Notes under the pieces: generated by a model
What the model was told of the DNA's origin: nothing
The model's database searches: none
What the model saw: the letters and a program-made list of their open reading frames with translations, nothing else
In this document: positions 1 to 17,918 of the stretch, piece by piece
Numbering within the stretch: position 1 is the first letter of the stretch
Layout of the letters: each line of letters starts with the position of its first letter
NCBI GenBank assembly: GCA_016712475.1
Contig: JADJRA010000001.1
Coordinates: 1,797,414 to 1,861,413 of the forward strand
Direction: 5' to 3'
DNA length: 64,000 nucleotides
Source: Deltaproteobacteria bacterium
GTDB taxonomy: Bacteria; Myxococcota_A; Polyangia; Nannocystales; Nannocystaceae
Program-made: the position numbers and the translations under genes

Positions 1-535
1 GCGCGGCATCGAGGCGGGCATCGAGCTGCTGCGGTCCGGGCAGCTCGAAGCCGATGCCCGACGACGCGATGGTCTGCTTGGCCCGGCTGATGCGCTGCGC
101 CATCGTTGCCTCGGGCACCAGGAACGCCCGCGCGATCTCGCCGGTCGTGAGCCCCGCGACCGCGCGCAGCGTCAACGCGATCGCCGAGGTGCGCGTCAGC
201 GCGGGGTGGCAACACATCAACACCAACGCGAGCGTGTCGTCGGCGGCGACCTCGGCATCGTCATCGGGTGCGGGGGCCGCGACCGGCCCGGCATCGAACA
301 CGAAGATCTCACGGCGCGTGCGCGCCAGCTCGGCGCGCACGTGATCGGCCAGCCTGCGCGACGCGACCCGCAGCAGCCACGCGCGCGGCTGCTGCGGGAC
401 GCCCGTGTCGGGCCACTGACGCGCGGCGGCCAGCAGTGCCTGCTGCAGGGCGTCCTCGGCGGCCGCGAAGTCGCGGTGGCGACGGGCCAGCTTGGCCAGC
501 ACCTGCGGCGCCAGCTCGCGCAGCAGCGTCGCCAT
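1..535 (-). CDS. ECF-type RNA polymerase sigma-70 factor (5' part in window; C-terminus runs off window start)
   Basis: Reverse-strand translation from ATG at ~535 gives MATLLRELAPQVLAKLARRHRDF...LTLRAVAGLTTGEIARAFLVPEATMAQRISRAKQTIAS. This is a sigma-70 region 2 followed by a region 4 HTH. The gene lies immediately downstream of a YciI-like gene, a common pairing. Confidence 0.6.
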   Translation of the reverse strand, partial: MATLLRELAPQVLAKLARRHRDFAAAEDALQQALLAAARQWPDTGVPQQPRAWLLRVASRRLADHVRAELARTRREIFVFDAGPVAAPAPDDDAEVAADDTLALVLMCCHPALTRTSAIALTLRAVAGLTTGEIARAFLVPEATMAQRISRAKQTIASSGIGFELPGPQQLDARLDAA

Positions 536-555
536 CGACCCCGCTGCGGCCGTAC

Positions 556-954
556 TCACGGCTCGACCGGCGGCGCGCCCATGACCTCGCGGATCTCGAT
601 CGGCATGCGCAACGGCTTACCGTCCTTGCCGGGCGCCGACGAGGCCTGCGCCGCGATCGCGTGGGCGCGCTCGGGCGTCTCGACGTCGACGATCCAGTAG
701 CCGGCGAGGAACTCCTTCGACTCGGCGAACGGCCCGTCGGTGACCTCGGGTGCGCCCTTGGCCCCGGCTCGCACGAGCCGCGCCTGGGCCGGTGGCGCGA
801 GGCCCTCGGCGGCGACCAGCTCGCCGTCGCGCTGCAGCGCCTCGGTCATCTCGGACATGTACCGCACGTGGGCCTGGATGGCCTCCATGGGCCACTTCAT
901 GACGTTCCAGTCACCGTCGCCGCGGGGGGCATTCATCATCAGCATGAACTTCAT
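556..954 (-). CDS. YciI-like (YCII/DGPF domain) protein
   Basis: A 132-aa ORF (MKFMLMMNAPRGDGDWNVMKWP...) whose size and composition fit the YCII-related domain. It is co-oriented with the adjacent ECF sigma gene. Confidence 0.6.
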   Translation of the reverse strand: MKFMLMMNAPRGDGDWNVMKWPMEAIQAHVRYMSEMTEALQRDGELVAAEGLAPPAQARLVRAGAKGAPEVTDGPFAESKEFLAGYWIVDVETPERAHAIAAQASSAPGKDGKPLRMPIEIREVMGAPPVEP

Positions 955-1072
955 GGCTTCGTCTCCTCGGGTGCTCGGCCGCCGGTGATTCGGGCGGCGT
1001 TCACGGCCCTGTCGGAGCCACCACCCGCGTTCTCGACATCGCGCCGCGACTTTTTTCGGAGGCCCTCGCGGG

Positions 1073-3085
1073 CTACAGGCACCCGCTCATGTCGGGGAAC
1101 GCGCAGACCCCATCGGTGCACTCGTTGGTGATCACGCCGGTGCGCAGGAAGGTGTCGAGCTGGCGCTGGAACTCCGGCAGCTTGCGCAGCTTGCCGTGGG
1201 GATCTTCGCAGGCGCGCTGCGGCAGGTTGCCGACCGGGTCGGGCGGCAGGCCGAACGCGTACTCGACGATGCCCGAGCCCTCGTGCGGCGCGGTCACGGT
1301 CTCGAGCCCGTAGATCTCCCGGACGCCGCTGTCGATGTGCGGCATGCCCATGGTCCGCGCCATCACGTGGGCACCGAGTGTGGTGACCTGGTGATCGCCG
1401 ACGGCGTCGTTGATGAAGACCTGGTGCGCGGGCGTACCCGGCAGCATGTCGCGCAGCACGTAGGGCGCATAGCCAGCGGGCTCGGTGCGCTCCCACAGCA
1501 TGTCGGTGAGCGCCAGCAGATACGTCTGCTGGCGGGTGTCGGGGTAGCTCGCGCGGATGATCTCGAAGAAGGGATCGAAGTCGGCGCTGCGGCTGAGCAG
1601 CAGGTTGTAGGGCATGCCCGGCACGCCCAGCACACCGCGCTCGACGTCGGTGGTGAGCGCCATGTACGTGGCGCCGAAGATCCCGCCCTGGCTGATGCCG
1701 TGGTAGTAGGCGCGCTCGGGATCGATGAACCCGCCGTAGTCCGGATCGGCGGCGAAGCGCCCCTTCATCATGCGCATCGCCAGCAGCGAGTTGAGCATGC
1801 CCTGGTGCTGGCGGTCGACGACGTCGGCGAAGCGGTGGAACTCGCCGGCAGCGATCAACGCACCGATCTGCAGCTCGTCGTCGGCGGCCATGCCGATGAA
1901 GTCGACGCCGAACATGATGTAGCCGTAGGCGTCCATGAACTCGAGGAAGTGACCGCTCTCGATCTGCTCCTTCTCGCCCAGCAGGCCGTGGCCGTACTGG
2001 ATGAGCCCCGCGGGCGCCTGCACGGCCGCGTGCGGGATGAGCACCTCGAAGCCGAAGCTCGCGGTCGGCATCGCGGGGTTGATCACCGGCAGGCCGTCAT
2101 CGCCGAAGACGAGCTTGGCGCCGGGCCCCGGTTGATCGAGGTACATCGGCACCGTCATCTCGCCGAAGATGCGGTAGGCGATGTGGTCGGGCTCGTAGTC
2201 GTCCTCGACGCTGGTGATGGTGTACTCGGGGCCATCGTCTCCCACCATCGCGAGCGACTCGTCGCGCATGCGCAGCATCCAGCCGGTCTGGTTGTCGCGC
2301 GACGCCGTGGTGAAGTCCCACGCCAGCTGCAGGCCGTCGCGGGCCACGCCCGCGTCCGCTAGGCGGGCGAAGATGTCGGCGTAGAGCGGTCGGCGGGCCT
2401 CGATCGAGGCCTCGTCGGAGGCGGTACCGTCGCGCAGGGCGGCGAAGCCTGCGGTCGGCGCGAGCTCGTCACCCACGCCGTTGCGCAGGTGCGAGTAGCC
2501 GACGATGTAGCGGTGATCGTCGCGCAGGCGGATCGCCGGATGCATGATGAGCAGCTTCTGCTCGGGATCGTCGGTGGTCGCGTCGAGCTCGACGAAGTGG
2601 GGGACACGCTCGCCGGTCTCGGCGTCGAGCAGGATGCTGGGGCAGTCGGCCGCCATCGAGCGCGCGATGTCCTTCGAGCTGGGGAAGCCGACCAGGCCGT
2701 AGGGCACCAGCTCCGGGAAGTGGGCCAGCATCGCGATGCCGGGCGTGAAGCCATCGGCGCGATTCCACGGATCGGCCTGGGGCCGACCGCCGTAGTAGTC
2801 CATCGGCATCGCGTCGACCTCGAGCTGCACGCGGCGACCGGTCTGGGTCGCGTCGTCGGCCACGGTGTACACGTTGCTCGGGAACGGCAGCGGGCAGAAG
2901 CTCGGCACCAGCGGATCGCACGCGACGTGCGGCCACTCGACCACCGGCGCGATCGGATCGCCGGTAGTGGTCGAGTCGGCGGCGCCGGTGCTGGTGTATG
3001 CGGCGCTGGTGCTGCCACCGGCGTCGCCACATGCGGCGAGGGTGAGCGTGACGAGCAGCGGAGCGAACGAGCGACAGGACTGCAT
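1073..3085 (-). CDS. secreted alpha/beta-fold serine hydrolase, lipoprotein
   Basis: Internal Met start MQSCRSFAPLLVTLTLAACGD gives a signal peptide with a lipobox. The nucleophile-elbow motif GISQGG (G-x-S-x-G) is present. The long upstream extension of the ORF is probably spurious. Confidence 0.5.
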   Translation of the reverse strand: MQSCRSFAPLLVTLTLAACGDAGGSTSAAYTSTGAADSTTTGDPIAPVVEWPHVACDPLVPSFCPLPFPSNVYTVADDATQTGRRVQLEVDAMPMDYYGGRPQADPWNRADGFTPGIAMLAHFPELVPYGLVGFPSSKDIARSMAADCPSILLDAETGERVPHFVELDATTDDPEQKLLIMHPAIRLRDDHRYIVGYSHLRNGVGDELAPTAGFAALRDGTASDEASIEARRPLYADIFARLADAGVARDGLQLAWDFTTASRDNQTGWMLRMRDESLAMVGDDGPEYTITSVEDDYEPDHIAYRIFGEMTVPMYLDQPGPGAKLVFGDDGLPVINPAMPTASFGFEVLIPHAAVQAPAGLIQYGHGLLGEKEQIESGHFLEFMDAYGYIMFGVDFIGMAADDELQIGALIAAGEFHRFADVVDRQHQGMLNSLLAMRMMKGRFAADPDYGGFIDPERAYYHGISQGGIFGATYMALTTDVERGVLGVPGMPYNLLLSRSADFDPFFEIIRASYPDTRQQTYLLALTDMLWERTEPAGYAPYVLRDMLPGTPAHQVFINDAVGDHQVTTLGAHVMARTMGMPHIDSGVREIYGLETVTAPHEGSGIVEYAFGLPPDPVGNLPQRACEDPHGKLRKLPEFQRQLDTFLRTGVITNECTDGVCAFPDMSGCL

Positions 3086-3198
3086 GGGCTTCCTCGCGGT
3101 CAAGGGGACCGCGCGAGGATAGCGAGCCGATGCGCGCTGCAGGGTACGCGCGCGCGTGCGTCTGGTCTCGCGCGTGCGAAGCATGTGTTCCATCGCGA

Positions 3199-3918
3199 TC
3201 AGTCACGTCGGGCCACGCGCGCGGCCCGACGCGCCCGCACGCGCTCGACGAACTCGCGCCACAGCGTCTTGGTGGGCACGTACTCGAGCCGATCACTGCG
3301 ACGGTACTGCGGCTCGATCGCGGCCATGTGGGTCTGGACGAGCACCGCGCCGCGCGAGACGGTGGAGCCCGCCACGAGGCGCGGGTCCTGTTCGTCCGCA
3401 TCGGCCTCGTCGGCGGCCTGGCCGGGCGGGTCACACGGTGCGTCGGCAGTCGCGTCTGCATCGCTCGCGTTGCCGGGCTCGATCGTGTCTTCATCGGCGA
3501 TCCGCAGCGCCTCGGCGTCGGCGGGCGCCACCGGGGTCGTCGCTGCGTCGACCGCCGGCGCGTAGGCGAGATCGAACGGCCGCGTCGACTCGGCCTCGGG
3601 CCACGTGCTGGGCGACACCTCGCCGTGCCCCGTGCACGCGGCGAGCCCTGCCAGCGCCGCCGCGAGCAGCGGCCGTGGGCTCGCAGGCTCGGGTCGCAGC
3701 GCGATGATGCCGTCGGCACGGGTGCGGTACTCGACGCAGATCCGCTCGCCGTCGTGCTGAGCCAGCAGCGCGCGGACCTCGGGCTCGGTCATCTCGCCCA
3801 GGCGCAGGACCGGCTTGCTGCACTGCTCACACCACGCGCGTCCGCGACCGCGCGCCGCCAGCTCGACCCCACTCGGACACGGCCCGATCACCGGCAGACG
3901 ATCGCGATGCAGCGGCAT
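3199..3918 (-). CDS. hypothetical membrane-anchored protein with N-terminal Cys motif
   Basis: This is the in-frame Met (MPLHRDRLPVIGPCPSG...CEQC...) inside the long fused 3199..4791 ORF. It has a central hydrophobic segment (PLLAAALAGLAAC) and an acidic C-terminal half. It lies between the TetR gene and the hydrolase gene on the same strand. Confidence 0.35.
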   Translation of the reverse strand: MPLHRDRLPVIGPCPSGVELAARGRGRAWCEQCSKPVLRLGEMTEPEVRALLAQHDGERICVEYRTRADGIIALRPEPASPRPLLAAALAGLAACTGHGEVSPSTWPEAESTRPFDLAYAPAVDAATTPVAPADAEALRIADEDTIEPGNASDADATADAPCDPPGQAADEADADEQDPRLVAGSTVSRGAVLVQTHMAAIEPQYRRSDRLEYVPTKTLWREFVERVRARRAARVARRD

Positions 3919-4025
3919 GGTGGCGGATCGAACGACACTGCACCGCGGCCCTGACACGACAACCGTCCCTGCCCGCCCTTGCACCAAGCCGTGAGGCTCG
4001 AATCGACGACGACGGGGGCGGCGGA

Positions 4026-4671
4026 TCACGCCACCGACGGTGCGCTCGCGGTGCCCGAGCCGAGGCCACGCCCGGGGTGCACGGCGATCGCATCCCAGCA
4101 CGCACGCTCGGCCTGCGCGACCACCTCGTCGTCGAGCACGAGTCGGCCCTCGGTGTGCGCGCGCATCATGCCCACGAAGGCGCCGAACACGAGCTCCATC
4201 AGCAACGTTGCGTCGAGCGGCTTCACGAGGCCCTGCGACTGCGCGAGCCCGAGCATGCTGCGCGCGAAGTCCTTCAGGTTGCGATCGAGCGCCACGCTCT
4301 CGTCGTCGAGATACGAGGCGTGGTTGTGGGTCTCGATGAACATGAACGCGTCGGGGTCGTCGCGCGCGAACGCGATGATCTCGAGCCACATCACGCGGAA
4401 TTGTTCGCGCGCGCCGACGCCCTGCGGGAAGGCCTTGAACACGCGCTGCATCACCACCGACTTCCACTTGCGGTAGAGCTCGTTGACCAGCGCCTCCTTG
4501 CTCGGGAAGTAGTGATAGATCGTGCCGGCCGCGACCTCGGCACGCTCGGCGATCTGCGGCATGGCGGTGCCATGGAAGCCGCGCTCCACGAAGCACGCGA
4601 GCGCGGCGGCCATGATCGACTCGCGTCGGTCCGGCCGGGCTGGCGGTCGGCCCCGTCTTGGCTTGCCCTCC
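4026..4671 (-). CDS. TetR family transcriptional regulator
   Basis: Has the TetR HTH signature RRESIMAAALACFVERGFHGTAMPQIAERAEVAAGTIYHYFPSKEAL. I chose a TTG start (MEGKPRRGRPPA...) so that the operator-like palindromes lie upstream rather than inside the CDS. The 253-aa ATG alternative would overlap them. Confidence 0.65.
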
Positions 4672-4675
4672 AAAA

Positions 4676-4795
4676 TACCGAATGAATGTTCGAACAATTC
4701 CGGGCGCTTTGCCAGCTCCCCGTGAATTTCCCTTGCCACGTGGGCTTCCCGGTGCTTCCCTACCCCACAGATTTTTCGAACGAACATTCAATCAG
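4676..4795. promoter_or_regulatory. putative TetR operator pair in divergent promoter region
   Basis: Two copies of GAATGTTCG-containing dyads are present: cgAATGAATGTTCGAACAATTc at ~4676-4700 (palindromic core TGTTCGAACA) and, on the opposite strand, tTTTCGAACGAACATTCAATc at ~4772-4795. They sit between the divergent TetR and lipase genes. The region is AT-richer than its surroundings. Confidence 0.35.
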
Positions 4796-4810
4796 GAACT
4801 CTGGAGCACC

Positions 4811-5884
4811 ATGACGACGCGATCCCTCCCCGCCCTGATGGGCCTGGCCCTGACCCTCACCACCGTCACCGCCTGCGACCTCGATCTGCCGCCCGGCGAC
4901 ATCACGCAGCCGCAGTACTGGGGTGACCTCTTCCTCGCCAAGTACGCCGACGAGCTGGTGCTGAACGAGCTCGAGCCCGGTCCCACTCCGCTCGAGCAGC
5001 CGCGCGTGGTGCTGCTCATCACCGGCGTCACGATCCCCGCGGCGTGGTTCGAGCCGATGATCGCACGGCTCGAGCGCGACGGCTTCGTGCCCGTGGTCTA
5101 CGAGCCGCCCGAGCTGCTGAGCGGTGACCTCTTCGAGAACTCCGAGCGGCTCGCCGATGTCATCGACCAGGTCCGCGCCGAGCACGGCGTCGACACCATC
5201 GACATCCTCGCCGAGTGCACCGGTGGTCTCATCGCGCGTCACTACGTGCAATCGCTCGGCGGCGCGCCCAAGGTCTCGCGACTCGTCACCTTCATCTCAC
5301 CGCAGCACGGCCTGCCCAAGGCTCCGTGGGCGCAGGACATCGTCGGCTGGCCCGCGCTCGACGACCTCACCCCCGGCAGCGAGTTCCTCTCGGCCGTCAA
5401 CGACGCGCCGCTACCCGAGGGCCTGCCGATCACGTCGATCTACACCTGCACCGACGAGTACATCCAACCCTACGAAACCTCGATCATCCCCGGCGCCCGC
5501 AACATCGGCCTGTGCGACGGCTTCGTCGGCCACTTCCAGTTCTTCTACGACCCCGCGATCTACCTCGTCATGCACGGCGCGCTCGTCGAGCCCCTCCCCG
5601 GCGACCCCGCACCCGGCGGTGACGACGACGGTGGTGAGGCCGACGACGGTGAGGCTGACGGTGGTGAGGCCGACGGTGGTGAGGCCGACGACGGTGGTGA
5701 GGCCGACGGTGAGGCCGACGACGGTGGTGAGGCCGAACCCGACGACGACGGTGATGATCCGGACGCAGACGCCCCCGGCGAGACGGCGCAGGGATGCAGC
5801 GTCGCCCCGCGCACGGCTGCTACGCCGACATGGCTCGCGGGCCTCGCGATCGCGCTGCGTCGCCGACGTCGCATCCGCGTTTGA
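4811..5884 (+). CDS. secreted lipase-family (class 2-like alpha/beta hydrolase) lipoprotein with acidic G-G-E-A-D repeats and MYXO-CTERM
   Basis: Signal peptide with lipobox (LTLTTVTAC). Lipase-like core with LITGVT...ILAECTGGLIARHY. Tandem GGEADD repeats. C-terminus QGCSVAPRTAATPTWLAGLAIALRRRRRIRV matches the MYXO-CTERM pattern. Confidence 0.6.
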   Translation: MTTRSLPALMGLALTLTTVTACDLDLPPGDITQPQYWGDLFLAKYADELVLNELEPGPTPLEQPRVVLLITGVTIPAAWFEPMIARLERDGFVPVVYEPPELLSGDLFENSERLADVIDQVRAEHGVDTIDILAECTGGLIARHYVQSLGGAPKVSRLVTFISPQHGLPKAPWAQDIVGWPALDDLTPGSEFLSAVNDAPLPEGLPITSIYTCTDEYIQPYETSIIPGARNIGLCDGFVGHFQFFYDPAIYLVMHGALVEPLPGDPAPGGDDDGGEADDGEADGGEADGGEADDGGEADGEADDGGEAEPDDDGDDPDADAPGETAQGCSVAPRTAATPTWLAGLAIALRRRRRIRV

Positions 5885-5885
5885 C
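5578..5885 (+). repeat. direct repeat copy 1 (~300 bp; 3' end of lipase gene including acidic repeats and MYXO-CTERM)
   Basis: Near-identical to 7394..7700. The flanks ALVEPLPGDPAPGGDDDGGEADDGEAD and DDDGDDPDADAPGETAQGCSVAPRTAATPTWLAGLAIALRRRRRIRV are conserved. The internal 12-15 bp GGTGAGGCCGACGAC units differ in number and sequence between copies. Confidence 0.8.
5640..5745 (+). repeat. 12-15 bp coding tandem repeats (ggtgaggccgac[gac]) encoding G-G-E-A-D(D)
   Basis: Direct inspection. A second, diverged array is in the duplicated copy at ~7440-7545. Confidence 0.7.
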
Positions 5886-5965
5886 GATCGCCATAGTCCC
5901 CTGTGGCTTCTGAGACCGAGAAGTCGCGAGGGCTCAGCACGGTTGGACCCCGGGGAGGTGACTCG

Positions 5966-7257
5966 TCACGCTGAGTCGGCGTCGCCCGTCTCTTCGCCGA
6001 CCCGCGAGGCCTCGCGCTCGTATGCTGTCAGGATGGCGGTCCGGAGCTTCGGCATGTCGTCGAGGCTCGTGAGAGCGAATCGTGACGCTCCAAAGGAGCC
6101 GCCATCAAACACGTCGACACCGGGTGCGAACACCCGTCCCTCATCGCACGTGACGTGGCGGAGCGCGACCCAGCCTGGCTTTCGGTCGAGGTTCAACCGT
6201 GCGAACCACTTGCGGAGGTTGCTCTGATGGAGCGTGAAGTAGCCCTTGCCATCGCGATGCGCCACACTCGCATCTGGCCGAACCTCTCGCACCCAACCGC
6301 CGACGATTCGAGCGACCTCGAGTTCTTCCGCCGTCGTCACAACCCCAGGCTTCGCTTCACTGCTTGGCGTTGCCGATGACTCCACCAATGGCGACGAATC
6401 GACGCGATCGGTGGAATTGGACTCACTCGGGTCGGGAGCCGAAACCTCGGGCGGTCGGGCGAACGACCTGGCGACGTGGTCGACGATTGCGCTCTGGATG
6501 GCTCGCCGGAGAATCGGAGTGAGCCGCTCGACCAACTTCACAGTGACTCGCGGCACGTCGGGGAGCTCGCCAGCGATCCAGCGGATGAACGACTCACTCG
6601 GTTCGCGCAACTGCTCGGCGACAGTCTTCAGGATCGAGTTGTAGTACACGGTCTCTTCCGCGAGACGGGAAACATCGGCGGGCACGAAGTCGGCCTTGCG
6701 GAAGTTTCTCAGAGACTCGACCTCCTCCGGCTTGATGTTGAGCAGATCGATGTCGAGCCACGGCGTGGGATCCATCAAGTTCGGCTGTTGCAAGTCCGTG
6801 TAGACACGGATGCGGACACCATCTGTGATGATGCCGACGCGGACGTCAGGGTCCGCGTTGAAGTAGCGCGCTAGCTGCCCGCCGTTGTCCTGCAACGAGG
6901 CGCCTAGTGCCTTGCACTCGACGAAGAGGGCTGGTTTTCCCCCGAGGAAGATCGCGTAGTCGACCTTCTCGAACTGCCCCGACTTCTTCACCGCGAAATC
7001 GGCGATGTACTCCGGCCTGACCTCGCGAGGATCGAAGACGTCGTACCCCAGCACTTGTAGCAGCGGAACGACCAACGCCTGCTTCGTGGCCTCCTCCCCC
7101 GCGGTCGGCGAACTCCGCTCACCCTCATGCCTGACGAACGGGATGCGATTTCGAATCTGCTCGATGTGCTTTGCGAGTTCGTCCTGAAATGCCACGTAGG
7201 TAGCGTGGGCGAGGTCAGTCGGACGTGTCAATGACGCGGAATCGCGCGAATCGAGCA
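5966..7257 (-). CDS. HsdR-N-like PD-(D/E)xK nuclease-domain protein (restriction-endonuclease-like), probably horizontally acquired
   Basis: Starts MLDSRDSASLTRPTDLAH... The N-terminal ~150 aa carry the type I restriction enzyme R-subunit N-terminal signature: VVPLLQVLGYDVF...EYIADFAV...KVDYAIFLGGKPALFVECKALG. This is the D...E-x-K nuclease core. The gene is visibly less GC-rich than its flanks, and its reading frame is opposite to both neighbours. The upstream ORF extension into 7258..7741 is antisense of repeat copy 2 and is rejected. Confidence 0.5.
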
Positions 7258-7383
7258 TCGGGGAGAGGACGGCGGCCGAATGGCCAGCAAGTGCGAGCCT
7301 CGAACATTCAATCCGGCGATCGCGATGCACGGCAGCAGTACGGTAGGATTGGCGGACTCCCCCCTGCGACCATGAACGCTCGA

Positions 7384-7690
7384 GACCTCGCGTGCGCTCG
7401 TCGAGCCCCTCCCCGGCGACCCCGCACCGGGCGGTGACGACGACGGTGGTGAGGCCGACGACGGTGAGGCTGACGACGGTGGTCAGGCCGACGACGGTGG
7501 TGAGGCCGACGACGGTGGTCAGGCCGACGACGGTGGTGAGGCCGATCCCGACGACGACGGTGATGATCCGGACGCGGACGCCCCCGGCGAGACGGCGCAG
7601 GGATGCAGCGTCGCCCCGCGCACGGCTGCTACGCCGACATGGCTCGCGGGCCTCGCGATCGCGCTGCGTCGCCGACGTCGCATCCGCGTT
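7384..7690 (+). pseudogene. orphan 3' fragment of the lipase gene (repeat copy 2), no start codon
   Basis: In the frame homologous to the lipase C-terminus it reads (stop)TLETSRALVEPLPGDPAPGGDDDGGEADDGEADDGGQADDGGEADDGGQADDGGEADPDDDGDDPDADAPGETAQGCSVAPRTAATPTWLAGLAIALRRRRRIRV(stop). A TGA lies immediately upstream and there is no in-frame start. Confidence 0.5.
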
Positions 7691-7782
7691 TGACGGCACC
7701 GCCCGCTCCTTGCGAACGCCGTCCCGGGTCGTCGGACGCACTTGGGTTGCCGCCCATCCGCGTCCGTGGCACCACGAGATCG

Positions 7783-8169
7783 ATGGACCTGTCCCCGCAG
7801 AACCTCGGGCGTGCTGGCGGCATCGTGGTGATCCTCCTCGGCGTGGCCGGAGTCGTGGGGGCCGGCTACATGGCGCAGGAGGAATGGGCGGCGTGGCTCT
7901 TCATCGGCACCGCGGCGTTCGGACTCGCCTTCGTGTTCGCAGGCGTGAGCGCGATCCGATCGGCCGCGCCACGAGTGGTCGAGGTGATGCCCAAGGACGA
8001 GCTGAAGCAGCTCATCGACGCCCGTCCGGTGCCGTTCTCGATCTGCGTGCGCTGTCGCGCGATCATGGATGGGGCCGCGCTCGGCTGCAGCGCCTGTGGG
8101 TCGGTCGTCGACTGCGTTCAGATCGCCACCGAGGCCGAACGCACCATGGGTCGCGCGGCGCTGGGATAG
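7783..8169 (+). CDS. small membrane protein with C-terminal CxxC...CxxC zinc-ribbon-like motif
   Basis: MDLSPQNLGRAGGIVVILLGVAGVVGAGYMAQEEWAAWLFIGTAAFGLAFVFAGV gives two predicted TM helices, followed by ...CVRCRAIMDGAALGCSACGSVVDC. Lies in the intergenic space after repeat copy 2. Confidence 0.35.
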   Translation: MDLSPQNLGRAGGIVVILLGVAGVVGAGYMAQEEWAAWLFIGTAAFGLAFVFAGVSAIRSAAPRVVEVMPKDELKQLIDARPVPFSICVRCRAIMDGAALGCSACGSVVDCVQIATEAERTMGRAALG

Positions 8170-8202
8170 GCGCGGCCGGTCTCCTGGCGGCGCCCAGCGC
8201 CA

Positions 8203-9903
8203 TCAATCGAAGCGGCTGCCGATGCGCAGGGTCCAGGACCCCAGCACGCCGGTGTTGCCGGCGACCGCATCGACCACGCGCAGGGTCCACTCGCCGTTGA
8301 CCGACTCGTCGCCCGAGAAGCCCACCGGCGCGGCGTGGAAGCGGAACAGATCGGCCTGGTCCTGTGCCACGAGCACCTCGTTGCCCGCGGGATTGGTGAG
8401 GGTGACGCGGAGGTCCTGCGGGTTGGCGTGGTCGATCTGCAGGTCGATCTCGACGTCCATGTCGACGGTCGCGAGGCCGTAGACGAGCAGCGAGCGCGAC
8501 AGCCCCTGCGCGTCGCCGTCGGGGATCGCGAGGTCGAGTGAGGTCTCGAAGCTGCCGTCGGCGAAGTTGCCGACCATCCACGCCGGCAGGCACAGGCCCT
8601 CGTCACCGCGGGTGAGTCCGGCGCACATCAGACCCTGACCGAGGTCGCACGGGGCCGATGCGCTGCACTCGGTCTGCTCACCGAAGCCCGAGAGCACGGT
8701 GCAGCGGCCCACGTTCGAGGCCTCGGAGCTGCCGACGCAGGTGCCCTCGGCACAGTCCGCGTTCGAGCTGCAATCCTGGCCCTGCGAGCCGACGCCGGCG
8801 CTGCAGCGCTCGATCTCGCCGTCGCTGATCACGGCGACGCGCTCGGCAGCGTCGAGCGGGAAGTAGGCGCCGACCGAGGTGTCGCCGGCGCCGAACTCGT
8901 AGACCACGTACGCGCGCGCGCTGGTGCGGTCCCACAGCTCGGTGCGGTTGATCTCGCCCTCGTCGGCGCGGGAGAACGCGTCGTCGACATCGGTCACGTC
9001 GGTGTGGGCCGAGCTGCGTACTGCCTCGACCACCTGCGCGCGCTGCAGCTCGCTCAGGCCAGCGGGCGACTGCAGCCGCACGCGCGGGCCGCTGACGACG
9101 TCGTGGGAGCTGCGCAGGTCGTGATACTGGTCCCCGAACACGCACTGCACGGCGAACGGCGACAGCTCGTCGAAGCATGCTGGGCCCATCTCCTGCGCGA
9201 AGGCCTCGAAGCCCGCCGCACAGAAGGCCGCCGGCATCGGCGCCTCGCACAGGCGATCGAACACCGGCCCGAGCGCCTCGCCATCGGTGCAGATCGCGAG
9301 CGCCTCGGCGGGGGTGAGATCTTGGCTCTCGGGATCGGCGGCCGAGTCGGCGACCTGCGCGTTCATGCAGGCGAGGATGTTGTTGGCGACGGTCTCGTCA
9401 CAGCCGGCGGGCGCCGGGGGCAGCGGCGCGCAGTCACCGTTCTCGCAGGTCGACGACAGGCGATAGGCCCCGCGACCCCGCGCGTCGTGGGTGCCGACCA
9501 CCACGAGGTACTCGCCGGCAGCGAGCGTGAGGCCGGTGATGCGGGACTGTCGACCCCAGCCCGCGTCGTCGTCGAAGGCGATCGCGGTGTCGCCGAAGGC
9601 CTCGCCCTGGCGGGGGCCGAACACGAACAGCGTGGTGTCGAGCGCCTTCGCGGTGCCCTGTCGCGTGATCTCGATGCGCACGCGTGCGCCCTCGCGGACC
9701 GAGAGGTGATAGCCGTGGAACTCGAGGTCCTCGGTGAAGCGACCGGTGCGGGCGGCCTCGAGCTCGAGCGTGCCGAGGTCTTCGACGTGGTCGATGGCGT
9801 CGCCTTTGCCATCGCCCAGCTCGGGGATCACGGCGTCGCTGCGATCGTCGGCGCTGCAGGCAAACAGGGAAACGGCGGCGAGTGCGGTGATGGAGGCGCG
9901 CAT
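8203..9903 (-). CDS. secreted lipoprotein with N-terminal pre-peptidase C-terminal (PPC)-like domain, Cys-rich middle and C-terminal proprotein-convertase P-domain
   Basis: Start MRASITALAAVSLFACS is a lipoprotein signal. The PPC-like block is LEFHGYHLSVREGARVRIEITRQG...AGEYLVVVGTHDARGRGAYRLS. The C-terminal P-domain-like block is SRSLLVYGLATVDMDVEIDLQIDHANPQDLRVTLTNPAGNEVLV...GEWTLRVVDAVAGNTGVLGSWTLRI. No subtilase catalytic domain is present. Confidence 0.5.
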   Translation of the reverse strand: MRASITALAAVSLFACSADDRSDAVIPELGDGKGDAIDHVEDLGTLELEAARTGRFTEDLEFHGYHLSVREGARVRIEITRQGTAKALDTTLFVFGPRQGEAFGDTAIAFDDDAGWGRQSRITGLTLAAGEYLVVVGTHDARGRGAYRLSSTCENGDCAPLPPAPAGCDETVANNILACMNAQVADSAADPESQDLTPAEALAICTDGEALGPVFDRLCEAPMPAAFCAAGFEAFAQEMGPACFDELSPFAVQCVFGDQYHDLRSSHDVVSGPRVRLQSPAGLSELQRAQVVEAVRSSAHTDVTDVDDAFSRADEGEINRTELWDRTSARAYVVYEFGAGDTSVGAYFPLDAAERVAVISDGEIERCSAGVGSQGQDCSSNADCAEGTCVGSSEASNVGRCTVLSGFGEQTECSASAPCDLGQGLMCAGLTRGDEGLCLPAWMVGNFADGSFETSLDLAIPDGDAQGLSRSLLVYGLATVDMDVEIDLQIDHANPQDLRVTLTNPAGNEVLVAQDQADLFRFHAAPVGFSGDESVNGEWTLRVVDAVAGNTGVLGSWTLRIGSRFD

Positions 9904-10154
9904 GTCGAGCTCGACCGGCCGCTGTGCAACCTCGGCGCCGCGGTCTGTCACGGACCCTCACGCGGGATCTCGGGGGCTTTCGCTGGACGCGTGACCCCGA
10001 CGTGACCCACGCGGGCCGGCCCGGCCGGCCGTGGCCACGAGAGTCGCCACCCCACCCGAGCGGCCGCCAGGGGCCCGCCCGAGGCCGTCGCGCACATGGG
10101 CGGCGCTGCCACGGATCGATTTGGCCGCGGGGTGCACGTGCAGGTCGAGACCCC

Positions 10155-10703
10155 ATGACACGCGCCACGCATGTTCCATCGTTGCTGATCCTCACCGCGC
10201 TCGCGGGCGCATGCGCCTTCGAGTCCACCGCAACCGCGCATCGCGTGCCGGTGCCGGTGTTGGTCGGGCCGGTCGAGCAGATCGGCGGCGCACCGCGTCC
10301 GAGCAGCGCCGACGACGGCCCGCAATTCGACATCAAGGTCGATCGCACGGTGACCGCCTCGAGCAGCTCGCAGACCAGCGGCAACGTCACCGTCACCACC
10401 ACCACCGCGACCGCCTCCACCGCCGGTGCCGGCCTGGTCGACGCCCGCGTGCGACTGGCCGCCAACGGCGCCAAGAACCGCCTGGTCCGCGTCGACCAGC
10501 TGCGCGTGAACTCGTACAGCGGGTTCTTCTACTCGGCGGCGTGGATCAGCAGCCGCGTGCGCATCAAGGGCCACGTCGGCCGCGATGTCGTGCTGCCGGA
10601 TGCGCCCGCGCTCGCGCCGGGAATCGAATCGCCGCCGGGTGACACCACGAACTCGAACGCGGCTGCAACGACGACACCCGCTGCGAACTCCAACCTGCGC
10701 TGA
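10155..10703 (+). CDS. hypothetical lipoprotein
   Basis: MTRATHVPSLLILTALAGACAFE signal with lipobox, followed by a Ser/Thr-rich segment. First of three consecutive small lipoprotein genes on the + strand. Confidence 0.4.
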   Translation: MTRATHVPSLLILTALAGACAFESTATAHRVPVPVLVGPVEQIGGAPRPSSADDGPQFDIKVDRTVTASSSSQTSGNVTVTTTTATASTAGAGLVDARVRLAANGAKNRLVRVDQLRVNSYSGFFYSAAWISSRVRIKGHVGRDVVLPDAPALAPGIESPPGDTTNSNAAATTTPAANSNLR

Positions 10704-10720
10704 CACCAAGGCCCCGGACC

Positions 10721-11236
10721 ATGACCCGCCGCATCTGTGCTCTCACGTCGATCTCCTGCGTCGTCCTCGCGCTCCTCGATGGCTGCGCCGGAGGACGCTC
10801 CAACCTCCGCTTCGACGACACGCGCTACCCCGTGTCGCTGTCGCCGACGGTGCTCGGCTCCGACGGCGTCGTGTTGTTGCCCGCACGTCGCGAGGTCGTC
10901 GGCAAGCTCGAGATCGAGACCAAGGTCTACGGCCTGCTGTGGGCCGCGGTGCCGCTGACGCCCAACAAAGATCTCTCGACACAGGTCAACGATCAGATCG
11001 AGCGCGCCGGCGGTCAGGCGGTCGTGAACCTGCGCGTCACCAGCCGGCAGTGCGGCCTCAACAGCGCGTGGGTGCTGAGCACGGTGCCGCTGTGGCCGGG
11101 GTGCAGCAAGGTCTTCGTGCAAGGCGACATCATCCGCGAGCGCGCGCCCGAGGCCGTGGTCGAGATCGAGGCGCCGCCCAGCGAAGCCGCGGCCAGCGAA
11201 CCGATCGCGCACGCCCACCCCATGACCCTGCCGTGA
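10721..11236 (+). CDS. hypothetical lipoprotein
   Basis: MTRRICALTSISCVVLALLDGCAGG signal with lipobox. 171 aa. Confidence 0.45.
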   Translation: MTRRICALTSISCVVLALLDGCAGGRSNLRFDDTRYPVSLSPTVLGSDGVVLLPARREVVGKLEIETKVYGLLWAAVPLTPNKDLSTQVNDQIERAGGQAVVNLRVTSRQCGLNSAWVLSTVPLWPGCSKVFVQGDIIRERAPEAVVEIEAPPSEAAASEPIAHAHPMTLP

Positions 11237-11256
11237 ACTCCGCGAGGAACTCCATC

Positions 11257-11637
11257 ATGAAGACGTTCGCATCTCTGCTCGCCACCTCGACCCTCATGCT
11301 CGCGTGCAAGCTGGCGCCACCGGCCCCGCCGTACCTCAGCACCGAGGAACTCGCCGTGGTCGTCGTGCGCCCCAGCCAGGACATGGCGATCCGCATCGCG
11401 CAGTACTGCGAGCCGGTCGCCGCGGTGACGGCCTTCGGCGACAACCACCTGCGCCAGAACGCGCACACCCGCGGCGCCAACCTCGTCGAGGTGCTGTACG
11501 ACGCCGGTGGCAGCACCGCGGTGCTACACAGCTGCCCGCTGGGCTTCGACGCCGGCGAGGGCACCTTCGAGAGCAACGACGCGGCCGCGCGCGGGTCCTC
11601 CTCGAGCGTGACCACCCAGACGGTGACGTTGCACTGA
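11257..11637 (+). CDS. hypothetical lipoprotein
   Basis: A GAGGAAC RBS-like motif lies 6 nt upstream of ATG. MKTFASLLATSTLMLACKLAPP signal with lipobox. 126 aa. Confidence 0.4.
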   Translation: MKTFASLLATSTLMLACKLAPPAPPYLSTEELAVVVVRPSQDMAIRIAQYCEPVAAVTAFGDNHLRQNAHTRGANLVEVLYDAGGSTAVLHSCPLGFDAGEGTFESNDAAARGSSSSVTTQTVTLH

Positions 11638-11728
11638 AAAGCGCTCCGCGCTCGGACGTTGGCGCGCACCCTGAGCCCGCATCGGGACACGCACACCCGC
11701 GGCGATCATCGCAGATGAATGCGAGAGG

Positions 11729-13030
11729 ATGCCGCCGGCTCTCGATCCCGACGCGCTCGCACTGCCGGTGCTGCAGGACCCTGCCTGCGCCGCCTACGTG
11801 CGCGAGCTGTTGCGCACGCGCTGGACCGACGGCCACGACGAAGACGCCGTGGCACGCGTGCAGGCCCGCATCGACGCACGCACGATCGTCTTCGTCGCCG
11901 TCCACCACGGCAACTTCCCCAGCCTCGAGTTCCTGGCGCCGGCCCTGCGCGAGCGCGGGCACACGACGTTGGCGATCTATCTGCAGGGCGACGCACACGG
12001 CGAGGGCTTCGACCACACCGAGTGCTGCGGTGGTTCGCTCTCGCGGCTGGCGGCGCTGCTGCGGGCACTGCCCGACGGCACCGCGATCTATCTGCAGGCC
12101 CATGCCCGCTGGGTGTGGCTCGGGCAGCTGGTCGCCGCGGTCGCACCGCGACTGCGGCTGGTGCAGGAGATCTGGGACTGGATGGATCAGTTCGCGCCGG
12201 CCGCACGCGCGCAGGACTTCGTCGACGACGGCGTGTTCACCCACGCCGAGCTCGCGCTGATGCGTGGCGCCGAGGCGTGGGTGCGTGACCACGCGTACGC
12301 GGTCGTGCACAAGCACGGTGGGCGCGAGCAGCCGCCGTGGCCCACCGGCGCCGCGGCGCGCGAGTGTCGGATCATGCCGTGCCCGCCGCGCGCGTGGTCG
12401 CGGCCGCCGCTGCGCCGCGAGCCCGGCCCGTGGCGGATCGTACACGTGGGACAGATCAAGTCGCAGCACGCACCGGTGCGGGCGTTCGGCGACCTGCAGC
12501 TCGCATCGCTGTTCCAGCGCTGGACCCGTCAGGGCCTCTACGTGAGCGCGTACCCCGGGGTCGCACCGGCCGCCGATGCACTCGTCGACTACGAGGCGCT
12601 CGCGCGCCGCGATCGGGCCTTCGCGCTGCATCGACACCGCTCGATCGGTGAGCTGGTCGGCGCACTGCACGGGGCCCACGACTACGGCCTGCTGCTGTAT
12701 CCGTTCCCGCGCGAGCTCGCGGTCGGTCGTGCGCACCTACGTACGGCGCTCGCGAGCAAGCTGTTCACCTACGTCGCCGCCGGCCTGCCGGTGTTGGTGA
12801 GTCCGGAGCTGGCGTACATGGCCGAGCTGGTCGAGCGCCACGGCATCGGCCTGGTCGTCGAGGCGCGCGATCACGATCGGTTGCGCGAGCGCCTCGACGT
12901 CGTCGACTACCCGGCACTGCAGCGCGCAGTCCGGGCCGCGCAGTCCGAGTTCCACATCGAGCGCTTCGTCCCCGCGCTGGTCGAGCTGCTCACCGCCTGC
13001 GGCCCCGTCGCCGCCGAAGCACCACCATGA
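11729..13030 (+). CDS. glycosyltransferase-like protein (GT-B fold C-terminal half)
   Basis: C-terminal LFTYVAAGLPVLVSPELAYMAELVERHGIGLVVEARDHDRLRERL resembles the GT1/GT4 C-terminal domain. The stop overlaps the next gene's start (ATGA at 13027). Confidence 0.45.
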   Translation: MPPALDPDALALPVLQDPACAAYVRELLRTRWTDGHDEDAVARVQARIDARTIVFVAVHHGNFPSLEFLAPALRERGHTTLAIYLQGDAHGEGFDHTECCGGSLSRLAALLRALPDGTAIYLQAHARWVWLGQLVAAVAPRLRLVQEIWDWMDQFAPAARAQDFVDDGVFTHAELALMRGAEAWVRDHAYAVVHKHGGREQPPWPTGAAARECRIMPCPPRAWSRPPLRREPGPWRIVHVGQIKSQHAPVRAFGDLQLASLFQRWTRQGLYVSAYPGVAPAADALVDYEALARRDRAFALHRHRSIGELVGALHGAHDYGLLLYPFPRELAVGRAHLRTALASKLFTYVAAGLPVLVSPELAYMAELVERHGIGLVVEARDHDRLRERLDVVDYPALQRAVRAAQSEFHIERFVPALVELLTACGPVAAEAPP

Positions 13031-14208
13031 CCGCTCGTCGACCGCAACGCATCGCGATCGCGCTGCCCCGCGACAATGACTTCTACCGCGCCCTCGCTGC
13101 GCAGATGTGCCGCGGCTTCGAGGCCTGCGGCCTCGAGGCCACCAGCGTGCTGCGTCTGCTCGCCGCGGACGACATGCGGGACTTCTGCGCCAGCGTGCGC
13201 CCCGACGTGTTGCTCGAGATGAACCGCTCGCGCGCGATGGCGGAGTTCGTGCCCGACGACGTCGTGCACCTGACGTGGGTCGTCGACCTCGGCGGTCGCG
13301 CGGTCGATGACTTCGCGGGCTCGGCGTACACGTATCTCTTCAGCGACGCGTGGCTGCCCCACTTCACGCTCGACGCGCCGCATCGTTGGCTCGGCCCCGG
13401 CGCGTGCCCGCAGGACTACCCGCAACGCGCCCACACCTCGAACCAACGCCTGGCGTTCCTCGGCCACATCCCGAATCCGTGGACCCCGGAGGAGCTCGCG
13501 CGCGACGTCACCGGCGGGGCTGGCGTGTGCGACTTCGGCAGTCTGCTACCGGCGATCGAGCGGCTGCTGCGACCCGACGATCCGCACCAAGCGCTGCTCG
13601 GCGTCGAGGACTTCCTACGTCGCATCGACGGGGCCTGCTATGCGATCGGCGGCCACCCCTTGGTGATCGACGACGCGCTCGCCTACGACATCACGTGCCG
13701 CGTGGTGCGGCACCTCAACCGCACCGAGCTGGCCGACGCGGCGCTCGCGATGGCATCGCGGCGCGGCCTGCAGGGCGACGCGCTCGCACGGTGGCTCGGC
13801 ATCTGGGGCACGCCCAACTGGTCGCGGTGGCCTCGCTTCGCGCCGCACTACCACGGCTGGCTCGCCACGCCGGCGCAGATGTCCGAGGTCTACACCGGCA
13901 CGGAGATCGTGCTGCACGAGGGCACCGGCGTGCACTTTCGATCGATGGATGCGATGAGCACCGGCGCGCTGGTGTCGTTCCGCGAGGGTGATCTCGGCAG
14001 CCATGTCGACGCGATCCACCTCGGCTTCGAGCCGCACGTGCACTTCGTGCCGTTCCACCTGCACGAGATCGACGACGCCCTCGCGCCGTACCTCGCCGAC
14101 CCCGTGCGCGCGCAGGCCATGCGCGACGCCGCGGCCGCGCGCATCCGCGACGCCCACACCTGGCGCCACCGCGCGCAGGGAATCCTCGACGACCTCGCGA
14201 GCCTGTGA
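13027..14208 (+). CDS. CgeB-like / DUF3880 (Glyco_trans_1_2) family protein
   Basis: C-terminal ...GTEIVLHEGTGVHFRSMDAMSTGALVSFREGDL...EPHVHFVPF...ADPVRAQAMRDAAAARIRDAHTWRHRAQGIL matches the CgeB C-terminal pattern (HTY/W-x-R). Translationally coupled to the upstream gene. The next gene starts 5 nt after its stop. Confidence 0.5.
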   Translation: MTARRPQRIAIALPRDNDFYRALAAQMCRGFEACGLEATSVLRLLAADDMRDFCASVRPDVLLEMNRSRAMAEFVPDDVVHLTWVVDLGGRAVDDFAGSAYTYLFSDAWLPHFTLDAPHRWLGPGACPQDYPQRAHTSNQRLAFLGHIPNPWTPEELARDVTGGAGVCDFGSLLPAIERLLRPDDPHQALLGVEDFLRRIDGACYAIGGHPLVIDDALAYDITCRVVRHLNRTELADAALAMASRRGLQGDALARWLGIWGTPNWSRWPRFAPHYHGWLATPAQMSEVYTGTEIVLHEGTGVHFRSMDAMSTGALVSFREGDLGSHVDAIHLGFEPHVHFVPFHLHEIDDALAPYLADPVRAQAMRDAAAARIRDAHTWRHRAQGILDDLASL

Positions 14209-14212
14209 CCCG

Positions 14213-16792: not shown

Positions 16793-16806
16793 TATCGTCA
16801 CCCGCG

Positions 16807-17874
16807 ATGCTCTTCCCGCGTCGCGCCTCGCTCGGTGTGTCCCTCGTCGTGCTCGCGTGCGGGTCGCCCTCGGGCGGTGACACCGGCACTAGCTCCGGCG
16901 ACGGCAGCACCTCCTCGACCGGCAGCGACGCCAGCGACAGCGGCACCTCCGACCCGGGCACCAGCGGCAGCTCCGGTGCCGCCGATGGCTCGAGCAGCAC
17001 CGGCACCACCGGCGATCCCGACGCGTGCTGGACCGACCTCGCGTTCGGCGAGCAAGAGGTCTTCTACGACGGCTTCGCCGACGGCAGTGAGGGGCTCGCG
17101 TTCGGTGCCGACGGCAAGCTCTACGCGACCACGATCGCGGGCACCGACGGCACGCTGTGGCAGCTCGACGCCGATGGCAACGCCGTCGACTTCGCCCACG
17201 TGCCCTACGCCCTCGGACTCGCGCCGCGACCCGAGGGCGGCTTCGTGGTCGCGTCCATCGGGGTCAACATGCAGCCCGACGGCGCGGTGTATCGCGTCGA
17301 CGCCGACGGCACCGCCACACAGTGGGCGACCGGCATCGACAGCCCCAACTTCGTCACGCTCACGCCCGACGGCGGCGCGTTGGTATCCGACGATTTCGAC
17401 ACCCGCATCTTCCACGTCGCCGCCGACGGCACCGTCACCGTCGCGCTCGAGATGATCGAGTCACCCAACGGCATGGCCTACAGCCCCGACGGCAGCCACC
17501 TCTACGTCGCGACCACCTTCGCCGACGATCCACCGATCACACGCTTCGAGGTCGACGCGCAGGGGCTGCCCGTGGCCGGCACCGGGGTCGAGATCCTCCG
17601 CATCGGCCCGGTCTCGACGCCCGACGGCATCGCGGTCGACGAGGCCAACATGGTCTACGTCGCCGCCAACTTGAAGGGCGAGATCTGGCGGGTCGACGGT
17701 GGGTCGACCGAGGTCGTGCCCGGCGAGCTGGTGAGCGATGGCCTCGGCTCGCCGGCGAGCCTCGCGTTCGGCCACGGCGCCGGCTTCGACCCGTGTTCGA
17801 TCTACGTCACGCAGCTGTTCGGCGCGAGGATCCTGCGGGTCGGCATCGGCACACGCGGCCTGCCGCTGCCGTAG
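16807..17874 (+). CDS. SMP-30/gluconolactonase/LRE-like beta-propeller lipoprotein
   Basis: MLFPRRASLGVSLVVLACGS is a lipobox signal, followed by a Ser/Gly/Thr linker. Repeated ...DGTLWQLDADGN..., ...DGAVYRVDADGT... and ...DGSHLYVAT... blocks resemble SGL-family propeller blades. Sits directly downstream of the GT-like operon on the same strand. Confidence 0.45.
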   Translation: MLFPRRASLGVSLVVLACGSPSGGDTGTSSGDGSTSSTGSDASDSGTSDPGTSGSSGAADGSSSTGTTGDPDACWTDLAFGEQEVFYDGFADGSEGLAFGADGKLYATTIAGTDGTLWQLDADGNAVDFAHVPYALGLAPRPEGGFVVASIGVNMQPDGAVYRVDADGTATQWATGIDSPNFVTLTPDGGALVSDDFDTRIFHVAADGTVTVALEMIESPNGMAYSPDGSHLYVATTFADDPPITRFEVDAQGLPVAGTGVEILRIGPVSTPDGIAVDEANMVYVAANLKGEIWRVDGGSTEVVPGELVSDGLGSPASLAFGHGAGFDPCSIYVTQLFGARILRVGIGTRGLPLP

Positions 17875-17918
17875 CGCGGGAGTCCCTGGACGCCTCACCG
17901 CGCGTCGCGTCGCGTGCG

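Follow-up and report, generated by a model that had tools for sequence, protein, structure and literature searches.

The gene that is the subject of this work encodes a nuclease whose closest described counterparts are the R subunits of type I restriction enzymes, with HsdR of EcoR124I (2w00) and HsdR of Vibrio vulnificus (3h1t) having an N-terminal nuclease domain alike. It lies in a stretch of 64,000 nucleotides (nt) from a bacterium of the family Nannocystaceae (GCA_016712475.1, contig JADJRA010000001.1, positions 1,797,414 to 1,861,413), referred to here as the window, and it is enclosed by two copies of the 3' end of a lipase gene. In contrast to the type I subunits, the protein of 409 amino acids has a helical connector and a YjbR-like domain in place of the superfamily 2 (SF2) helicase/translocase, and the gene has no hsdM or hsdS partner among its neighbours (the lipase gene and the genes p128 and p582; the remainder of the 64-kb window was not searched for them). 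The type IIG/IIL enzymes DrdV (7lo5) and BpuSI (3s1s) continue into methyltransferase and target-recognition domains, neither of which the window protein has, while the type IV restriction enzymes are likewise solitary and work without a cognate methyltransferase. The same architecture is found in the PHROG 4225 family, with at least 291 close and at least 1310 distant cluster representatives and with members in temperate phages and plasmids, and nothing but the insertion scar sets the window copy apart from this family.

Some integrative elements have the 3' end of a gene as their target and bring a substitute 3' end with them. In these elements, as in single-crossover insertion-duplication, the target gene stays intact, an orphan 3' end lies beyond the insert and each copy of the tail is contiguous with a different downstream sequence, all of which is seen here too. 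Unlike the 3'-end integrative elements, the locus has no integrase and no short att (attachment) core in diverged arms; the repeat extends over 300 bp and is 98% identical, the insert measures only 1.5 kb, and its junction includes short patches that appear to be copied from nearby.

A nuclease gene between two lipase tails

The features on which the comparison rests are the following (window coordinates).

4811 to 5884, plus strand: intact lipase (alpha-beta-hydrolase) gene, 357 amino acids, with an acidic GGEAD-type linker and a MYXO-CTERM-like tail
5579 to 5886, plus strand: repeat copy A, 308 nt, the 3' end of the intact lipase gene with its stop codon and 2 nt more
5887 to 7393, strand not assigned: unique segment of 1507 bp with a low GC (guanine plus cytosine) content of 0.60-0.64, absent from sister genomes of about 99% identity
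5966 to 7195, minus strand: solitary HsdR_N-type PD-(D/E)xK nuclease gene, 409 amino acids, with its stop codon at 5966-5968 and a GTG start at 7195
7394 to 7695, plus strand: repeat copy B, 302 nt, an orphan lipase 3' end
7783 to 8169, plus strand: p128, a small gene for a protein with a CxxC...CxxC pattern and a pair of hydrophobic stretches; the gene is found in the window and its 99% sisters, not in the contig L033
8203 to 9951, minus strand: p582, a convergent gene with a P_proprotein domain

The repeat was checked by aligning 5540-5920 with 7355-7735, with a repeat finder and by reading positions 3800-9000. Copies A and B share 296 aligned columns in a MAFFT alignment, with 6 mismatches and 19 gap columns; all the gaps are confined to acidic units of 12-18 nt (GGT-GAG-GCC-GAC type), and both copies end 2 nt past the lipase stop codon (TGACG). 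The 64-kb window has only these two copies of the tail. Copy B is an orphan, with a TGA at 7373-7375 in the homologous frame and no in-frame ATG, GTG or TTG after it; the ATG at 7372 was considered as its start and rejected because it lies in a different frame. The first-pass annotation, made from the letters of the window, had described this duplication at 5578-5885 and 7394-7700. The alignment bears out the duplication and shifts its limits to 5579-5886 and 7394-7695, and the same reader's remarks that the second tail is an orphan and that the copies differ mainly in their acidic units hold as well.

The segment between the two tails differs in composition from what surrounds it, as had also been noted: its GC content is 0.60-0.64 over 5850-7350 compared with 0.69-0.75 in the flanks, and the GC content at third codon positions (GC3) is 0.775 in the nuclease gene and 0.867-0.925 in five neighbouring genes. 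Unlike the nuclease gene, p128 is not compositionally foreign. The parts of the unique segment that flank the nuclease gene found no match by BLAST against all the fetched loci beyond the known sisters. No transposase, integrase or recombinase gene is present in 5887-7393, which holds one gene, or in 5887-8203, which holds two, and a repeat finder and inspection by eye only revealed no convincing terminal inverted repeats at the ends of the insert.

The informative evidence comes from the same site in close relatives. Contig L033 was obtained from a scan of metagenomes, while L103 and the others were obtained by an exact look-up of the p128 protein, which is on record on at least 15 contigs. 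In L103 (a 3.67-Mb contig, GCA_016709225.1), L104 to L108 and L111, all of the type that is about 99% identical to the window, the order of genes is TetR-lipase (347 amino acids)-p128-p582, with one tail and no nuclease. Positions 58-5913 of L103 correspond to window 1-5886 (98.8%) and positions 5636-12387 to window 7394-14169 (99.1%), so that the single tail of L103 is common to both aligned blocks; relative to L103, the window has 1507 bp of unique sequence (5887-7393) and a second tail. At about 97% identity, L033 (WBZX01000641.1) is without the nuclease, copy B and p128: its positions 1269-7131 match window 1-5891 and 7129-16866 match window 8198-17922, its junction TTTGACGATCGCGATCAATCG joins window 5891 to 8198, and the stop codons of the convergent lipase and p582 genes lie 9 nt apart. 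The site is a three-state polymorphism that also involves p128.

Further afield, the nuclease is absent from the lipase locus in 26 genome loci and 60 metagenome loci. Relatives at the species level keep the TetR-lipase pair and no other synteny, and their loci are therefore unusable as empty sites. The check for empty sites that had been proposed at the outset came out positive: in the 99% sisters the lipase gene, with its single tail, directly precedes the gene at 7783. No relative examined has the nuclease at the same site, copy B is not the 3' end of another intact gene, and the earlier picture of a solitary, foreign-looking nuclease in an insertion-type scar is supported. These observations suggest that a foreign, restriction-like cassette of one gene was probably gained here not long ago, by insertion-duplication.

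The nuclease and its relatives

The first in-frame ATG of the nuclease gene, at 7258, would give a protein of 430 amino acids. Sixty-two homologues start at MAFQDDL, for which reason the GTG at 7195 is taken as the start in the window; the annotation of a single opposite-strand gene between the copies was correct, and only its start at 7257 has to be replaced. The 55-60 nt that precede the consensus start are conserved in frame (window 7196-7258 against 2145-2208 of L001, the locus of the closest homologue, with 78% nucleotide identity), and they form either a short N-terminal extension of a subgroup or a conserved leader.

The protein matches the Pfam families HSDR_N (PF04313, 46.8 bits for a cut-off of 25.1) and HSDR_N_2 (PF13588, 25.1 bits for a cut-off of 25), in agreement with the HsdR-N fold that had been read from its sequence; HSDR_N is the sole Pfam domain found in it, and no SF2 helicase/translocase domain was found by Pfam in the 409 residues. 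The catalytic D...ExK residues D100, E114 and K116 and the QxxxY residues Q128 and Y132 (in the numbering of the 430-residue form) are intact and are invariant in an alignment of 63 sequences, with a spacing of 13 residues between D and ExK and of 12 residues from there to QxxxY; they form the motif set of the EcoR124I HsdR nuclease domain, where the equivalents are D151, E165, K167, Q179 and Y183. An AlphaFold2 model built from the same alignment, with a predicted local distance difference test score (pLDDT) of 86, has three parts: the nuclease domain is followed by a long connector of helices, and a disordered linker (274-299) leads from there to a compact alpha/beta domain that resembles YjbR/YdhG/DUF419. 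The fold is restriction-endonuclease-like and its closest folds are restriction enzymes; a PDB sequence search returned only noise.

The C-terminal half, called uncharacterised in the earlier annotation, is not idiosyncratic: the whole architecture of about 400 amino acids, YjbR/YdhG-like domain included, is that of a large conserved family. A word-indexed protein search returned at least 291 relatives with 47-86% identity over 93-99% of the length. When 1.84 billion cluster representatives were searched with a profile, at least 1310 reached E<=1e-30 and 3076 reached E<=1e-10; most of these have 350-400 amino acids and match end to end. PHROG 4225, labelled 'endonuclease', is matched over its full length (E 1.3e-86 and 291.9 bits; positions 19-352 of the 357 in the profile pair with residues 28-393), and the tblastn relatives, of 30-37% identity, come from 19 records of phages and 48 of plasmids. 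The nuclease is a further member of this known, large family, whose endonuclease role is putative. Two of the matches in the plasmid collection are really chromosomes, of Neisseria gonorrhoeae (2.17 Mb) and Escherichia coli (4.90 Mb), with unannotated homologues of 32-33% identity.

The surroundings of these relatives are varied. The homologue of Streptococcus phage IPP25 has the integrase gene on one side and the repressor gene on the other, that of a Clostridium plasmid-prophage is found beside helix-turn-helix (HTH) regulators and that of a Porphyromonas phage adjoins HicAB; the chromosomal homologues have unrelated neighbours and no constant partner gene, and no methyltransferase, HsdM or HsdS partner stands beside the nuclease or the homologues examined. 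The closest homologue (L001, 86% amino acid identity) has a different context, and its nucleotide homology of 79% is confined to window 7250-5975. In another locus, L032 (8001-11155), a homologue of 51% identity sits directly beside a gene for a large serine recombinase; next come several small genes in a row, together with an AAA_25/DnaB-like gene, and the whole resembles the border of an integrated element.

With regard to function, the literature found on COG2810, the HsdR N-terminal domain and DUF450 offers classification and one anecdotal functional hint only. A survey of the PD-(D/E)xK superfamily groups HSDR_N, COG2810 and EcoR124I together (PMC3424549), and a solitary HsdR_N protein was described in a phage-resistant Campylobacter strain, and not in a sensitive one, its role being called unclear (PMC8713573). 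The window nuclease would most likely be a stand-alone, restriction-like DNA endonuclease, possibly modification-dependent, that acts against incoming phage or plasmid DNA; cutting would be the task of the HsdR-type domain, and binding of nucleic acid that of the YjbR-like C-terminal domain. We infer this defence role from the relatives of the fold, from the solitary and patchy distribution of the gene and from the placement of its relatives in prophage lysogeny modules, which are the usual place of such genes. Several points weigh against it: the evidence is one of association, NCBIfam has no match for the nuclease, PADLOC-DB v2 has no family for it at E<=1, and no modified-base reader domain is recognisable in it, YjbR/YdhG/DUF419 not being known as such a reader.

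A different proposal is that the protein has nothing to do with defence and serves DNA repair or recombination, or else is a selfish nuclease of the homing type. The lack of a PADLOC model and of a methyltransferase or immunity partner would fit this proposal, as would the many chromosomal copies among housekeeping genes and the many tasks served by the PD-(D/E)xK fold (PMC3424549). It is nevertheless somewhat unlikely, given that homologues occur in the lysogeny modules of temperate phages and beside toxin-antitoxin genes, that presence is patchy and strain-specific and that the closest folds are restriction enzymes. The earlier suggestion of a defence or addiction element is kept as something that we infer, with neither a PADLOC match nor a partner gene to back it. 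The family matters in its own right as a large group of solitary, putative restriction-type nucleases, present in prophage lysogeny modules, that is not yet in the catalogues of defence systems.

Junctions, age and direction of the change

The ends of the unique segment and of the larger difference from L033 contain the following short elements.

5882 to 5899: left junction sequence TGACGATCGCCATAGTCC
5887 to 5894, strand not assigned: octamer ATCGCCAT, directly after copy A, with a 7/8 match to the L033 junction ATCGCGAT
7301 to 7316, plus strand: third operator-like patch CGAACATTCAATCCGG, 15/16 identical to operator-like site 2 (4781-4796) upstream of the lipase gene; a half-site only
7320 to 7333, plus strand: 14-nt patch TCGCGATGCACGGC, 12/14 identical to lipase positions 5565-5578, the bases immediately before copy A
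7384 to 7405: right junction sequence GACCTCGCGTGCGCTCGTCGAG
8196 to 8203: second octamer AGCGCCAT, to the right of p128

The match of the first octamer to the L033 junction has an estimated chance of about 1e-3. Octamers of the form A(T/G)CGCCAT flank the whole 2.3-kb difference from L033, an arrangement that could be a short target-site duplication but fits a microhomology deletion or a donor-derived junction equally well. On the right side, copy B is followed by GCACC...p128 as in L103, and 60 nt of unrelated sequence (7334-7393) separate it from the 14-nt patch, whose placement has a chance of about 0.002, a value estimated post hoc and suggestive only. The operator-like patch is conserved elsewhere only in TetR-lipase intergenic regions and is absent upstream of the closest nuclease homologue (L001); its position between the nuclease gene and copy B makes the junction a patchwork. 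When the junction segments were compared with the window by short-word BLAST, the matches were chance 9-13-mers only, the operator patch excepted. Taken together, the junctions look like products of illegitimate or homology-assisted recombination.

The substitutions within the tails distinguish the two copies. In a multiple alignment of all the tails, copy A has private substitutions at 5614, 5737 and 5767, and copy B has the same bases as L103 at all three of these sites and as L033 at 5614 and 5737. T5656/7471 and CG5853-4/7662-3 are common to both copies and set them apart from L103. The age of the repeat can be estimated by comparison. In the comparison of the window with L033, identity is 97-100% in constrained coding sequence, 86-91% in the TetR-lipase intergenic region and 89-91% in the lipase tail, and the divergence of unconstrained sequence is about 10-14%. 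L103 departs from the window by 0.4-1% over the whole alignment and by about 2% in the tails. The divergence of about 2% between copies A and B implies that, barring gene conversion, the repeat arose long after the lineage of L033 had separated and has roughly the same age as the separation from L103. The 'older insertion' that had been put forward is not compatible with these figures.

The site, between the convergent lipase and p582 genes, is a strain-variable spot at which a foreign piece of 1.5 kb was probably added to the lipase-p128-p582 arrangement, leaving the last 300 bp or so of the lipase gene on each side of the insert. The donor DNA may have come from a conspecific that lacked p128 and had the nuclease gene after its lipase gene, and would have entered a cell of the L103 type already bearing the lipase tail and the downstream octamer of the p128-less haplotype. 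Either a single crossover or an illegitimate joining assisted by homology, close to the left end of the shared tail, would have integrated this DNA, so that copy A would be donor-derived and copy B the original. A template switch during replication, with short stretches copied from no more than a few kb away, would lead to the same pattern; the copied stretches would then be the operator patch, the 14-mer and the octamer. Two repeats that are 98% identical could also delete the cassette cleanly by homologous recombination and restore the arrangement of the sisters.

Two histories may be written for the three states. In the first, the L033 type would give rise to the L103 type by gain of p128, and this to the window type by gain of the nuclease with the duplication; in the second, the L033 type would become the window type in one step of 2.3 kb, and the L103 type would derive from it by recombination between the tails. 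The first is preferred because the second needs a pre-formed insert with a conspecific tail next to p128, which is already the arrangement of L103; because the nuclease is compositionally foreign and p128 is not; because the nuclease allele is on record in no other assembly while the L103 type is common on record; and because the tail of L103 matches copy B throughout. A single transposon-like insertion of 2.3 kb with an 8-bp target duplication was also considered and is less likely, since its cargo would have to hold the conspecific tail already joined to p128.

Against a recent gain there are several considerations. Either history counts two events, and recombination between the tails of a window-like ancestor would yield exactly the sister arrangement, so that gain is only the more probable direction of the change. 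The p128-less, nuclease-bearing donor haplotype was not found; exact look-ups of the window nuclease (in its 430- and 409-residue forms) and of the lipase protein returned none on record elsewhere, and no independent assembly confirms the window arrangement. The homologues elsewhere are also 2-5 GC points under their own flanks, and the GC deficit may therefore be partly intrinsic to the family. A scan of 5800-7800 for consensus promoters and terminators found none, and there are no flanking repeats around nine homologues elsewhere, which indicates that the duplication was a one-off and not a property of the cassette or of the family.

The same facts may be read as loss in place of gain: the window type would be the older state, the L103 types would have arisen by RecA-type recombination between the 300-bp repeats and L033 by deletion at the octamers. 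Deletion between repeats is a frequent event, both sister states are the exact products of deletion between direct repeats that are observed, and the octamer flanks the whole 2.3-kb difference from L033. This account is unlikely, however. An ancestral repeat would need continuing gene conversion for its copies to remain 98% identical while unconstrained sequence diverged by 10-14% from L033, and the tail-p128 adjacency in a pre-formed insert of 2.3 kb itself requires a donor of the L103 type. Loss does not account for the foreign GC3 of the nuclease or for its absence from every other locus examined that has this lipase; moreover, the tail of L103 equals copy B at the three private sites of copy A, for which the crossover must fall in the first 34 nt of the repeat.

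It might also be supposed that the locus is a decayed segmental duplication, in which the operator-lipase unit was doubled, the second unit lost its 5' 770 bp and the nuclease landed between the two. The operator patch (15/16), the 12/14 match to 5565-5578 and copy B do stand in the order of the intact gene, but the scheme is very unlikely: at least three events are required, the 14-nt match is weak and is followed by 60 nt of unrelated sequence before copy B, the operator is a half-site only and the sister genomes hold no trace of a second unit. That the repeat is an artefact, with two co-existing haplotypes of a metagenome-assembled genome strung together around a misplaced fragment, would agree with the absence of the nuclease protein and the lipase allele from all other assemblies on record, with the breaks of related short-read contigs inside the acidic repeat at window 7521 and with the different haplotype-type junction on each tail, but is extremely unlikely, since no known allele of the locus is homologous to the 1.5-kb segment, the nuclease gene is intact, the differences between the copies fit real divergence and a simple linearised bubble would not explain why the junction holds an operator patch together with 60 nt of new sequence.

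To return to the recent gain of the cassette, a bolder proposal may be built on it: the HsdR_N-connector-YjbR-like family (PHROG 4225) would be an uncatalogued single-gene anti-phage or anti-plasmid nuclease that spreads as a bare cassette, without a recombinase, by homology-assisted, target-duplicating insertion, and that picked up here a half-site of the TetR operator. As a whole this is speculative and we consider it rather improbable; if it were true, gain of the cassette would be reversible by recombination, and the operator half-site could tie the expression of the nuclease to the lipase regulon. What the locus does offer is a well-resolved case of accessory-gene turnover, a natural series of three states (no cassette; p128; p128 and nuclease) within genomes that are 97-99% identical. 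The series shows single accessory genes entering a large myxobacterial genome, and able to leave it, without a dedicated mobility gene; otherwise it is ordinary turnover at the strain level, seen at unusually high resolution.

Neighbouring genes and the operator-like sites

Upstream of the nuclease locus, the lipase gene is preceded by a divergent regulator gene, with two operator-like sites in this region.

4026 to 4787, minus strand: TetR-family regulator gene, divergent from the lipase gene (Pfam TetR_N 70.8 bits, TetR_C_10 94.7 bits)
4680 to 4692, minus strand: operator-like site 1, CGAACATTCATTC (minus-strand reading), in the TetR-lipase intergenic region and at the same position in orthologous loci
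4781 to 4796, plus strand: operator-like site 2, CGAACATTCAATCAGG, 15 nt 5' of the lipase start codon, found by the repeat finder

The real start of the TetR gene is probably at about 4613-4670; its product is called with 195 amino acids in a sister genome. The divergent TetR-lipase pair is kept in 24 of 26 related genome loci (L003 to L028). The orthologues of the lipase are 59-99% identical. The lipase itself matches Palm_thioest in Pfam with 26.8 bits, with weaker matches to Abhydrolase_1 and Lipase_2, and scores 18.5 bits against the MYXO-CTERM model TIGR03901, just under the cut-off of 20.

The 13-mer core of the operator-like sites occurs three times in the 64-kb window, where 0.02 occurrences are expected, and it is found in the TetR-lipase intergenic region of 19 of the 26 orthologous genome loci, often as two sites about 100 nt apart. 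The conserved pair, GA(A/T)TGAATGTTCG and CGAAC(A/G)TTCAATC with about 100 nt between them, is located at 4680-4692 and 4781-4793 in the window and at about 9800-9990 in L003 to L027, and was seen again in metagenome-assembled genomes of Nannocystaceae, Polyangiaceae and Kofleriaceae. From its conservation, this intergenic pair is presumably the operator of the TetR regulator.

The number of acidic units of 12-18 nt in the lipase linker varies both between strains, with products of 347 or 357 amino acids, and between copies A and B; the arrays are located at 5620-5740 and 7440-7530 in the window and at 5680-5760 in L103. The short-read contigs L109, L110 and L112 all end at window position 7521, within the acidic array. 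Downstream, the nucleotide homology of p128 to its few homologues elsewhere is limited to 7781-8177, and those homologues (L097 to L102) are in unrelated contexts. The 5' end of p582 is variable among strains, the gene being called with 566 or 658 amino acids in some related contigs.

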